A DNA stretch of 64,000 nucleotides from positions 5,993,264 to 6,057,263 of the forward strand of contig CAVNZM010000006.1 of assembly GCA_963693365.1 (NCBI GenBank). Reading direction: 5' to 3'. Positions 26,407-47,400 of the stretch are shown here, one piece after another. Source of the stretch: Amoebidium appalachense. Lineage: Eukaryota; Protista; Ichthyosporea. A program made the translations under genes and the position numbers. The notes beneath the pieces are model-generated. The model made no database searches. It had not been told where the DNA came from and was given only the letters and a program-made list of their open reading frames with translations. Every line of letters starts with the position of its first letter. Positions within the stretch are counted from its first letter, which is position 1.

Positions 26407-29400
26407 ATGTCTTTCACCCGGCAAAAATCTCCCCTTGCGGGGTTGATTCTCCTTTTTTTAACTCTAATCCAACACTTTTATCTCGCACTTGGCGCAAACA
26501 TAGCCGTTCTACCTGGCCTCAATACAATATCAACCGCGATCGTGAACGCGAACGAGGGAGACTCGCTGATTTTGCAGGGAGGGGATTACAAAGAGACAGA
26601 GACCATTATTTTCCAAAAACGGATTCACATTCACGGGAATCCCGACGGAACTACGACACTGATCATGAGTCGCTCAGCTAACGGTGTGGCAATACGATTT
26701 CAACAAATTCTGAACGTAACAATCACCGACCTTACGATTGAGGATGAGGGCGCGGACGGGTTTTTCTGCGTATTGGGCGAGCCGGAAAAACTCGTGGTGA
26801 ATGCGTCTATGAAGGTGGATAATGCGGTGATTCAGCAGAACATGGTGCTCGTCGATATCGGTGCGTATTTTAATGCCATTCCCCCCCCCCCCCCCCCCCC
26901 CCCCCGCAAAAACGTTACACGCACACACATACGACAAACACACTTGCGTGCACAAATACATGCGAAAAAATAACGTGCGCACACATGCTGCTTGTATATG
27001 TGAACACAAACATGCACATAGCACACGTGGAACGTGGGGCAGGCACATACAGACCATCACACGATCACACATCTCATACACACCCTCACGTGTTCATGTG
27101 CTGGGAATCAACCAAGGCACTTATGCGCAAATACCGGCACGCACACACATGTATGTGCGCGGACACACACACACACACTCACTCACTCACCCACTCACTC
27201 ACTCACTCACTCGCACACATGTATGTGCGCGGACACACACACGCACTCACTCACTCACCTCACTCACTCACTCACACACACACACTCACTCACTCACTCA
27301 CTCACTCTCAATGTGCACACAAATATATTGCCCAATGAAACCAACCCCCACCCACCCCCACCCCTCCCTTCCTGCCGCTTTTTAGGGGGTTCTCGTGTGT
27401 GTCCTCGTTTTGTTAGTCAACCGTTCCCTCCCTCCCCCTCCAACCCCTTCCTCGTCTCCCCGTGTTCATTTGCGTGAACTCCGCCCTTTTCTTGGTCTTC
27501 ACCTCAGGGATCCCCACTCTATTCCCAAAAAAAAAAAAAACAAAAAAAAAAACCCCACACCCCTCCCACGTGTTTCCCTCTGTTTAGCCATTTGTGTAGC
27601 GCACGACTAAAAAAAATTTCTTTTTATTTTCAATTTTCTGATCTTAAAAATCCCTAACAGACATGGGACTATGGTTCAGCGGCCGCACGCTTCACAACGT
27701 CTCCTATGGGAATTGCACGTACATGGGAGAGAATTTGGAAGCCCTGCACCATGTTTACGTCGACATCCGCACGATTACGTGCCACGCGAAACTGTATTTC
27801 ACGATTGGGTTCCAAAAACTCGGAAATTGCGGTGTCAAGAAGGACAACACGAGCCCACGGTTCGTCTCGTACGCAGCGGAAATCAAACTCGATTTTACTG
27901 AAATTGTCGCCATGAGCAGCAATGTTTCACTTTTCCAAAGCATGTTAAAGGACGTCTCGCGCTCGTTGAACGAACGGGCCGGGCTACGGCTCGTTATAGA
28001 CAAGGAGAGGCAGGTTTCCGCGGCTATTTTTATCCCCGCGACTGCCAAATTAGGAAATATTCAGGCCGTCATCACCAACGTCACCTTCGATCCGCTTGCA
28101 AATTTCACCACGATCGAAATGTTGATCCTCCTCCCCACGCCCGTCGTGATCCCGGCAAACATCGGCGGACCAGTCACGGCGATCGACGTTACCGATCCGA
28201 ATATTGTCGCGGAAAATTGGGAAACTGTGGGGGATCCATGCGACATGGTTACTACCGCGGCGTGCATGCAAAAAACCCGATTTGCGGTGGGGGGTTGCGA
28301 TATTTCGGGAACTTACGCCCTTGGAGAGGTGCCTATTGCGTGCATGGAGCACTATGCGTCGGGACGGCTGCTTACTAATTGCCCCATTAACAAAACCCTG
28401 GTTGATATTACGGTGTTTTTGGATTCGGAGGATTTCTGTCAGATGTTGGCCGGACAGATGGGGGCGTCTTTTTGGGCTTCTGTGCAGCTATGGTAATCAG
28501 CCCCCCCCCCCCCCCCCCCCCCCCCCCCCCCCAGGCGCCGAGAAGGGGGAAAAAAAAACAAAAAAAAACAAACATATGCAGGCGCTCATGCATACACGGG
28601 TGCATGTGCGTGCGCGCGTACACACACACACACACACACAAACACACAACACACACACACACACACACACACACACACACACAACACAACACAACACACA
28701 AGATACCTTCCGATTTCACGTGTGCCACCTTTCTTTTACCCCTTTGCCATATAAGGTGCGCCATTGACTACGTGCTGTTTTTGTTACATTTCCATTACAT
28801 AAATTATGTCATACATTGTTCCTCTTTCCAATTCTTAGATTAAATGGTTGTCTATCAACTTTTAATCCCTCTCCCCCCCTCCCCCCCTTTTGTTTTTTGT
28901 AAAAAAAAAAGGACGTACGAATCGTAGTCACCAACAACATTCATCAAGCCTCCTCCCCCTCCCCACTCCCCTCCCCCCTCCCCGCCCCCCCTCCGCCCCC
29001 CTCCTCCTTGCTCCCCCCCCCTCCTCTCCCTCTTGCTCCCCTCCCCTTTCTCCCCTCCCCATTTATCCTCCCTAACAACCACACATGATCAATTACTACA
29101 GGAAGGACCAAAACCACACCGTCCCCCTTGGAGAATCCATGTCCAGTCTAGACTTGGGCGCACCAGTCTTCTATTCCGTCGACGTCGTACCAGATACAAG
29201 TTTGGGGATCGCAATCTCGAAAGCAAATGTCGATCAGATCGACCGATTGAAGACCGATGAAGGAAACCTCGGGTGTGATGTGTTCACTATTGATATTTCC
29301 AAGGAGATTCAGAAGAATGTTAGCACGACTTTGGATCAAGCTGCCGTCGCAGTAGGAAGTTCGTTTTCTTTGACGAGTGACGTCGTGTGCGCTGTCGCTC

Positions 29401-44400: not shown

Positions 44401-47400
44401 ACACGTACACGTACACGTACACGTACACACACACACACACACACACACACACACACACACACACGTACACGTACACACACACACAGGTACACATACATAC
44501 AAGCATCCATACAAGTTCTAAAAGAATCACCGCAAACCAAACAATCACCACTTGACAATAGTTAGTGCTCAAGTAAATGTAAGCAAGGGGACGAGCAAAA
44601 GATTGGTGAGGCATCACACACACACACACACACACACACACGCGCGCGCGCGCGCGCGCAGCCAGCCAGCCAGCCAGCCAGCCAGTTAGAACCACACTAC
44701 CAATCACATCACCATACTACTCTCGCCGTCCGACGATTTTCATTTCATTATTTTCACGCCCCGCAGGCACATTTGAAGCTGGAGGGGCTCTATACGACAT
44801 TGACAGCGCCCAAAGCGGAAACGTGGAAATGTGGCAGGTGGTGGCATACGACAAAAATCGCAAAGTTGTGGATTCTGTTACCTCCCCGCAGGGTTGGAAC
44901 ACAACTTGCACAAACCCCCTCGAGTCCAATCCGTGGTGGTGGAAAGTTGGTATGTCTTTTACCCCCTCCCCTCTCTCCGCCCCCCTTCCCCCCCTCCCCC
45001 CTTCCCTACCCACCACTTCCACATGGCCATACGAGCGCATCATACACAAGCGCGCCTGCGTGCGCATACACACGGAGGTTCAAAATGTCGTTTTGGTAGT
45101 TGGAAAATGACTGGGAAGTGGAGTAAAGTGCTGTAAGCATTTGAAGTACAGGGGGGGAAGGGGGAGGGGGACGGGAAGGGGGCGGGGGAGGGGAAGGGGG
45201 AGGGGGGAGAAGGGGGAGGGGGGAAGGGGGAGGGGGAGGGGGAAATGAAGGGAGAAGAGAGGATGGAAAGGGCTCTAACACAACCCCCCATTCCCCCCTC
45301 CCCCCCCCCCCCCCCACTCCCCCCAACACACGCGCGCACACGCACGCACACACACACACACACACACACACACACACACACACACACACACACACACACA
45401 CACACACACAGGTGGCCCCACCAACAAGACACCCATCAAGTTTATCACCATCGACTTTATTGGGAAGGTTGTAAAGGTCTCTCGTATCGACACGGCTTTG
45501 GACAACTTTTATGCTTTTGGTTGCACATATAACGCACGTAAGATCCCCCCCCCCCCCCCCCTCCCCCCCCCAAAAATATAAAAATATATAAAAATATAAA
45601 AATATAAAAAAACATAGAAAATATAATGGACCCCCTCATGTGCGACTTACTGGATCTATTTTGGGGATATCCCGGATGTGTAGACAACGGCGGCTCTGGG
45701 TACTTGTTAAATAAAAGGTTTCTCCGCGGAAACAGGCAGGGGGGAATGTGGTGGTGGTTTTTTTTTTGTGGGGGGGGGGGGGGGGGGGGGGGGGGTTCCA
45801 ACAAATTTACAGCAATTTACTCACCAGTCACATTGCAGGCGTTGCCACACCCGTCACCACTTTGGCAGCTCGGCGCCGTTCAGCTGAAACCGAATCCACC
45901 CCCGGTAACAACCCCCCCCCCCCCCCCCCCCCTCCCCACCATAAAAAGGAAAAAAGTCTTGTCTGATAACCACATACAGTACTGTCAATCTCAGTTTGCA
46001 AGTGCACATACTGTTAGCTGTGTCTCCTAAGCAGATGAAATTCGAAAACTGACCTTAAATTTTTCTTTTTTGCAGCCGTGATCGACTATTTGGACCCCCG
46101 AAACTTCGAACTTCCCGAGCCGGAATCTGAAATTGAACCCCTCCACTATCTGCAAAAGAGAGAAAAATCGATTGCCGATGATGGTACGATTACCACCCAT
46201 GTTTCCTTCAATATTACCGTTTCGATCGACTATTTGGACGGTACAGCCCGGCGCCGCAGACGACACATCAACATTGAAAAACGGCTGGAACACCGATCGG
46301 CTCCCGATCTGGGAGATGAAAAATCCGATCGCACACGCGCCAAAACCGCGTTTGGAGTCCGGTCATTACCCTTCGTGAAACCGAACAAACCCTTAAACAG
46401 TACGGAACCCAAGATCGCGCAAACCGAATTTTTCGAGGATGAAAATCCGATGGCGGTGACGATAGCACTGATCATTTCCGGGATTTTGCTCACTCTAGGG
46501 GGTACATGCTGCATGGGCACTATTGTACTTTCGTACCGGAAATTGCAGCAATTGGAAAAAATAGTGAAAAAGCGGCAATTCATGACAACTACAAACACTC
46601 ATATTTCAAGTATGACGCTTCACGGCGATTCCACAATGTCGAAACATAAAAACCACAACAGCCTAATTGGAAGCAGCGTTATGTCTCTCCATTCGATGCA
46701 CTCTGTGGCGGAGGACTTTGTTGTCAATTCCGAAATACGGGAAGTGCCTTCCCGGAAAAATTCAATTTCTAGTTCTACCCAGGCTGGAATGGCTCTTGCC
46801 CGGACCCCAAGTATGTCGGGAGTCAACCAACCTGCCGCTGGTCATCGCCCTCGTTCCTCCTCCCAGTCCGGTTTGTCTCCTCCCCCCCCCCCCCCCTCTC
46901 CCCCCACCCCCCTCTCCCCCTTCCGGCCCCTCCTACCCCTCTTGTCTCCCACATGTGGACCTGTACTTTTTCCCAATTGGTTTGATGCATGCTTCGGGTG
47001 CAGAGATTATTTATTTAGCAAGAATGGAGTCACGTCGTGTCCAAAAACGATGACGGAAGTTTGTATATCTAAAGTTAGCGAATATATCTTCTGTAGGTAT
47101 CTGCTCACCCTACTATCCTCGCTGCAGGATCCATGGGCTCTCACGACAGCATGTCACTCGGGGGCTCCACCACCAGCCTCATCAGCAACCATTCGAATTT
47201 CTCCAACCACGGGGGGGCCCAATTCGGTCAACGTCTAAGGGGACCGGGTGAACTGCTGCAGAAACTGAACAACCTCAACCGGCAGCCAACCACCGCCACG
47301 GGGGGATCCATGCAATTTGGTGCCCCGTCTATGGACCACGCCTCCGCACTGAAGAATTTGTCCCGCCAGGGCAGCAATGGTAGCAACCACAGTGGGGGTG

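Follow-up and report, generated by a model that had tools for sequence, protein, structure and literature searches.

Gene structure and transcript support

In the window, that is, the whole stretch of 64,000 nucleotides from Amoebidium appalachense (assembly GCA_963693365.1, contig CAVNZM010000006.1, positions 5,993,264 to 6,057,263), a single open frame on the plus strand leads from an ATG at 26407 to a stop codon at 48369-48371. Based on exon translation and GT-AG intron ends, it comprises 32 exons and codes for 2,214 amino acid residues. The product is interpreted as a type I membrane protein whose core resembles the zona pellucida (ZP) module and carries a large adhesive insert, an explanation that we consider reasonably plausible as a whole, including the mechanism proposed below. 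An initial annotation of the window had started the element at 27661, the position where exon 2 begins, and had described 31 exons, an insert of about 1150 residues and a returning strand in exon 29. The insert itself was borne out, with the values corrected to 32 exons, about 1,180 residues and exon 30. The gene outside the insert is arranged as follows.

26407..26860, plus strand: exon 1, covered by an RNA contig; signal peptide (residues 1 to about 29), beta-helix segment (residues about 30-120) similar to the C-terminal beta-helix found in PL6 alginate lyases, and start of the ZP-N-like domain
27661-28492, plus strand: exon 2
29102-29409, plus strand: exon 3
26803..28007, plus strand: domain 1, predicted ZP-N-like sandwich (residues about 133-267), across intron 1
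28056..28439, plus strand: domain 2, predicted extra immunoglobulin (Ig)-like sandwich (residues about 284-411) with six Cys, ending in LDSEDFC
28458..29409, plus strand: first part of domain 3 (residues about 418-531), predicted ZP-C-like strands A-E and a short E-F helix, from the end of exon 2 and exon 3
46195..46239, plus strand: displaced ZP-C-like strand F (residues 1716-1730), exon 30
46249..46263, plus strand: RRRRR, consensus furin site (residues 1734-1738)
46336..46365, plus strand: candidate strand G or external hydrophobic patch, a 10-residue peptide aligned with the post-furin strand of the family
46453..46533, plus strand: transmembrane helix by hydropathy (residues about 1802-1828), with a Cys pair at its end
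46534..48371, plus strand: Ser/Gly-rich cytoplasmic tail of about 385 residues, from the rest of exon 30 and exons 31 and 32
47128-47473, plus strand: exon 31, joint 46869/47127 seen in contigs
47894-48371, plus strand: exon 32 including the stop, joint 47472/47893 seen in contigs

All peptides quoted in the initial annotation lie in frame on the plus strand: those of 20 and 14 residues across exons 2 and 3, that of 13 residues at 46195-46233, and RRRRR, the 10-residue peptide and the transmembrane helix at the positions listed.

The transcript evidence originates from one public sample (X1); since GT-AG introns are missing from its contigs, it was classed as RNA. A contig of 3,641 bases contains exons 1-3 and 7-8, and a contig of 4,132 bases contains exons 19, 20, 22, 25, 27, 30, 31 and 32, in both cases with offsets exactly as in the gene model. 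By length, both contigs stop within exon 14, where they overlap by 29 bases and where a third contig branches; this fits an assembly break at a word of epidermal growth factor (EGF) sequence that they have in common. The length of exon 13 is required for the two contigs to abut, while the support for exons 9-18 consists only of their total length and a small number of the joints listed. Altogether, the contigs match the offsets of one gene and are consistent with one transcript, though none bridges exon 14. This gap and the use of a single sample would leave room for two genes or an assembly artefact, with exons 1-3 and exon 30 in different transcripts. Such a separation is hardly credible, since one contig joins exons 1-8 in register and the other exons 19-32, both reach exon 14 by length, and either half alone would be left without part of a domain. 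The 15 of 22 joints listed did not include one linking exon 3 directly to exon 30, which cannot prove that such a joint does not occur.

The insert between strands E and F

A profile built from 16 relatives of the protein matches it twice, at residues 16-531 (profile positions 4-507, 302.6 bits) and at residues 1707-1862 (profile positions 500-638, 41.6 bits), so that consecutive profile positions are used on both sides of the insert. From the last conserved Cys to the Tyr of the next strand, 19-23 residues were counted in all 13 relatives that reach this region (P0006, P0014 and P0015 do not contain it and were excluded), compared to 1,202 residues here. A matrix for strand F derived from the 13 relatives alone gave its best score at residue 1716 with a z of 6.6, which none of 200 shuffles equaled. 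It is almost certain that the insert, with about 1,180 residues (about 532-1714) between the ZP-C-like strands E and F, is located within the last domain of the core. Its modules are the following.

29892..30857, plus strand: exons 4-5, candidate beta/gamma-crystallin-type domain (residues 532-622), by eye from a 20-residue peptide
31390..35601, plus strand: exons 6-12, each coding for one calcium-binding EGF domain, seven in total (Pfam EGF_CA)
36348..36422, plus strand: exon 13, Thr/Ser-rich linker of 25 residues separating the two EGF runs
37017..41016, plus strand: exons 14-21, eight calcium-binding EGF domains (Pfam EGF_CA)
41444..42761, plus strand: exons 22-24, four repeats of six Cys that close with CC (residues 1270-1412), no Pfam family
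43460..45537, plus strand: exons 25-28, beta-rich domain of about 208 residues, no Pfam match and no credible relative found
45839..46194, plus strand: exon 29 and start of exon 30, end of the insert, likely a flexible linker, with dibasic sites RRR (residues 1665-1667) and KR (residues 1703-1704)

The 15 EGF modules named in the initial annotation were all recovered (15 of 15 exons above the EGF_CA cut-off), and its Cys-rich modules are present as well. Its crystallin module was not confirmed: the label of exons 4-5 is based on likeness to the crystallin motif by eye, the crystallin profile, which comprises only three near-identical bacterial domains, gave 2.1 bits with 26 of 500 shuffles as high, and exon 4 had no Pfam match. 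Scans of metagenomes and genomes gave one short match each, judged to be due to chance, and a plasmid scan gave none.

The insert is flanked on both sides by phase-1 introns, which suggests an origin by exon shuffling of the type described by Patthy. It likely projects from the ZP-C E-F loop and would form a large loop with adhesive function on a coat of the cell surface. With about 21 modules nested between strands E and F of one beta-sandwich, the design is rare. It raises the question how such a split domain reaches its fold, and whether a loop through which uromodulin subunits are connected is able to bear cargo.

Directly ahead of strand F (45880-46100, plus strand), the motifs ARRRS in exon 29 and AVIDYLD at the start of exon 30 echo the end of strand F and the basic cluster. 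This stretch showed the second-best strand-F score (z 4.1) and may represent a partial duplication at the edge of the insert.

An ichthyosporean family without the insert

An exhaustive search with exon 2 among proteins of up to 2,000 residues, a limit beyond which longer insert-bearing copies may exist, returned the 16 relatives (E values from 8e-25 to 2e-4), all annotated as hypothetical or unnamed. Organism names were available for 11 of them, and all are ichthyosporean: P0001 from Amoebidium parasiticum, six from Creolimax fragrantissima (CFRG6529, 1282, 8255, 7643, 5321 and 8303) and four from Sphaeroforma arctica (SARC_06640, 12837, 05493 and 13284). This agrees with the probably non-animal origin proposed at the outset. 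The insert-free homologues called for by the initial annotation were thereby found, as none of the 16 carries the E-F insert.

Whole relatives comprise 620-873 residues with a signal peptide, a PL6-like beta-helix, a Cys-containing core, a basic cluster, a transmembrane helix and a tail. Compared to them, the window protein shows an identical domain order, 12 shared Cys positions, strand F, furin site and transmembrane helix at 22-28% identity over about 500 residues. Among the 13 relatives that reach the region, the furin site is kept in all and a transmembrane helix was recognized by eye in 12. P0002 ends without a transmembrane helix. For the beta-helix, the family profile matched 5gkq with an E value of 2.4e-14 (profile positions 13-133), and exon 1 matched Pfam Pectate_lyase_5 below the cut-off (E 0.08). 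Word-index searches gave nothing for exon 2; started from the family alignment, they retrieved P0001 and a single beta-helix protein only. In a family tree calculated without P0006, P0015 and P0017, two of 12 inner branches were supported, and the window protein was on a long branch and not placed.

Individual members showed further features. In most relatives, the transmembrane helix ends in three to six consecutive Cys, a possible palmitoylation cluster. Inserts at other positions occur in P0012, where a PAN-like domain separates domains 2 and 3 (residues about 384-430; E 9e-4, below the cut-off), and in P0005, where an acidic segment follows strand F ahead of the furin site (residues about 551-613). 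P0015, a divergent, Ala/Pro-rich member found on a JGI/IMG contig, extends from the last part of domain 1 through domain 2 into the beginning of domain 3 and may belong to another lineage.

Relationship of the core to the ZP module

The fold was assessed on a predicted model of the relative P0001. For domain 3, ZP-C domains stood on top in two structural searches, with those of betaglycan and endoglin as the best matches, and the model of this domain shows the Ig-like fold of ZP-C. For domain 1, ZP-N rows were returned with a weak score. In the model, the post-furin strand (residues 440-454; predicted local distance difference test, pLDDT, 83-91) was aligned beyond the furin site of ZP2, and a conserved strand after domain 1 (residues 157-165, pLDDT about 50) was undocked. 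In the window protein, RRRRR is the sole R-X-K/R-R site and is situated, as far as the sequence indicates, exactly between strands F and G, where cleavage is predicted; the membrane anchor follows the patch. The external hydrophobic patch was defined after passages of PMC9692296. The ZP order of furin site and anchor given in the initial annotation was thus found again, and its 10-residue patch peptide was the best of 47-54 windows between furin site and transmembrane helix as post-furin strand, with 8-24 windows elsewhere in the protein exceeding its score, a level that is not statistically significant.

The predicted order of the core is an N-terminal beta-helix, a ZP-N-like sandwich, an extra three-disulfide sandwich and a ZP-C-like sandwich. 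The split ZP-C-like domain, with strand F supplied by exon 30, corresponds to what had been annotated, as predicted on the relative, but the module extends beyond what exons 2-3 and a single strand would provide, and the motif LDSEDFC closes domain 2 and does not belong to ZP-C. Domain 2 (about 130 residues) stands between the ZP-N- and ZP-C-like domains in the model and in every relative covering it, and has no counterpart in animal ZP modules, where a short linker is found. Domain 1 contains four Cys, with Tyr222 and Arg252 conserved and no Cys in its last strand; domain 3 contains two Cys (residues 487 and 525) and none in strand F. The three domains showed no profile likeness among themselves.

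Several observations weigh against a canonical ZP module. Domain 2 fills the place of the short linker, and the eight to ten conserved Cys of ZP modules (C1-C4, C2-C3; C5-C7, C6-C8) were not found. No FXF motif is conserved in the E-F loop in the family alignment, where a short helix is predicted. Pfam and profile searches gave no ZP signal at the sequence level, with Zona_pellucida matching none of 13 single exons and none of the 16 relatives, and the structural alignments comprise 5-15% identity with a small Z margin. The cysteine pattern, the missing sequence signal, the low identities and the small margin, together with language-model features of exon 2 that lean weakly toward VWD/C8 (0.83-0.86, lead level), could be explained by convergence: three Ig-like sandwiches unrelated to ZP, whose likeness, including a furin site ahead of the final strand, arose separately, the insert being real regardless. 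Convergence is nevertheless improbable in our view, as four features agree in order, namely ZP-N rows for domain 1, ZP-C on top for domain 3, the furin site between F and G, and the membrane anchor. The core is ZP-like and probably homologous to ZP, while not being a canonical ZP module.

A VWD/C8 identity of exon 2 was not borne out by the family model; Pfam VWD gave no match, and no VWD chain was among the 50 structural rows listed. For exon 3, the Atlas features from which this lead was taken returned nothing. Single-sequence folding of exon 2 reached a pLDDT of 29, Foldseek with the three-domain model returned unspecific rows of tandem Ig domains from the PDB and viral libraries, and no credible match was obtained when the sequences of exons 2, 3, 4 and 30 were searched against the PDB.

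Comparison with known ZP proteins and proposed mechanism

With uromodulin (UMOD), the protein shares the predicted ZP-N-like and ZP-C-like sandwiches, the cleavage site between F and G, a candidate post-cleavage strand, a membrane anchor and calcium-binding EGF domains. The EGF domains are located inside ZP-C here and before ZP-N in UMOD; further differences are the extra domain in place of the linker, the leading beta-helix, another cysteine pattern and FXF, and a transmembrane helix with a long tail instead of a glycosylphosphatidylinositol anchor. Compared to the egg-coat proteins ZP2 and ZP3, the ZP-N score is weak and the canonical eight-cysteine pattern is missing. Lineage insertions mentioned for ZP3 and nematode ZP modules in parts of PMC7456536 are small beside this one.

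As described in sections of PMC7737619, cleavage of uromodulin frees strand G, which is replaced by the linker strand of another subunit, and the E-F loop pairs with ZP-N of a third subunit and thus forms a subunit interface. For the present protein, the single spliced frame, the family membership, the position of the insert and the furin site after strand F provide the starting point. Strands F and G are predicted, from the relative, to dock in the third sandwich: the insert would loop out of the E-F loop, strand F would come back and complete the fold, and strand G would follow beyond the furin site like the external hydrophobic patch of ZP proteins. A furin/kexin protease could then cut RRRRR, strand G and the anchor would remain, and the freed groove might accept a strand from another molecule, a candidate donor being the conserved undocked strand right after domain 1 (QVSAAIFIP here).

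Since the furin site is kept in 13 of 13 relatives and a candidate donor strand is conserved and undocked, the likeliest role of the family is a cleavage-triggered assembly of a surface coat. This copy would most likely be a minority subunit in a coat of short paralogs, because its insert takes up space at the loop through which subunits are joined in uromodulin. Decorating, branching or capping appears likelier than a pure filament, due to this crowding and the poor conservation of the candidate G strand; EGF arms stiffened by calcium would be displayed along with a terminal binding domain. Kexin cleaves after dibasic sites, and a later cut at those of residues 1665-1667 and 1703-1704, before strand F, could turn the loop into a free arm. 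For the mechanism as a whole, we assume a little better than an even chance. Two considerations bear on filament formation: the insert occupies what is the subunit interface in uromodulin, which places filaments of this copy alone in doubt, and betaglycan and endoglin as the best structural matches do not polymerize.

The latter two introduce the most serious alternative, a non-polymerizing ZP-like receptor or shed adhesin, in which the core merely holds the EGF loop, furin cleavage yields a two-chain receptor held via strand G or releases the ectodomain, and signaling proceeds through the long Ser/Gly-rich tail. According to passages of PMC5464963, endoglin and betaglycan comprise no consensus cleavage site between F and G and a minimal linker and do not polymerize. 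Endoglin likewise departs from the canonical ZP cysteine pattern, and its single disulfide resembles the one Cys pair in ZP-C here; the insert in the loop used by uromodulin to polymerize, the domain in place of the linker and the tail of about 385 residues would also suit a receptor. In contrast to these receptors, the family keeps the cleavage site in 13 of 13 members, and most relatives are without another ligand-binding module. Furthermore, at least six copies in Creolimax and at least four in Sphaeroforma point to an expansion as in structural coat proteins, which often expand in copy number. A receptor or adhesin is therefore regarded as rather unlikely, and coat assembly remains the preferred reading.

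Closing a loop of about 1,200 residues within one chain is generally slow and entropically costly, and strand exchange is already part of ZP assembly in the portions of PMC7737619 considered here. Strand F, on its tether of 1,180 residues, might therefore enter the ZP-C-like domain of another molecule, which would result in a network with long EGF spacers. Such completion in trans is very improbable; seven EGF domains, a Thr-rich hinge and eight EGF domains could form a hairpin that returns strand F and unites both halves in one chain.

Origin of the module

A 2026 review (PMC13361971) describes, in the sections relevant here, the two-domain ZP module as a metazoan synapomorphy with choanoflagellate sequences as partial relatives; ichthyosporeans are not named in its main text. 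The ZP-like domains it reports for Salpingoeca rosetta, without the full two-domain architecture, likewise occur in a unicellular holozoan, and none was among the 16 relatives. No description of the family was found in the literature on ZP in ichthyosporeans (few subscription journals, no supplements), and papers with both terms use them in unrelated passages. An ichthyosporean family with both predicted halves and the tail of furin site, patch and anchor would mean that this matrix system arose earlier, in the holozoan ancestor, and would supply candidate coat proteins in Sphaeroforma and Creolimax. Tentatively, and with somewhat less than even confidence, it can be proposed that ichthyosporeans possess a full cleavage-activated ZP system missed by sequence searches, that the ZP module is older than animals by the whole holozoan stem, that its ancestral form comprised three domains, that the system polymerizes into the ichthyosporean cell coat, and that this paralog turned the E-F loop by exon shuffling into a display or cross-linking arm of 1,180 residues.

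Other features of the window

Within the introns of the gene, a tRNA-Thr(AGT) gene is located in intron 8 (33399-33472, plus strand) and a 31-base tandem repeat with nine copies in intron 4 (30483-30765). The intronic stretches at about 31996-32262 and 38140-38249 are covered very deeply by many divergent contigs and are likely interspersed repeats. Outside the gene, a frame of 494 codons at 1624-3105 (plus strand) begins like a signal peptide, contains repeats rich in Gly, Tyr and Asp, and perhaps codes for a wall or coat protein, and a frame at 50249-50836 (plus strand) comprises a helical Ala/Gln/Thr-rich segment after its ATG; neither had a Pfam match at 1e-5. On the minus strand, exon-like pieces with WD40-type motifs were recognized by eye at about 53165-63505.

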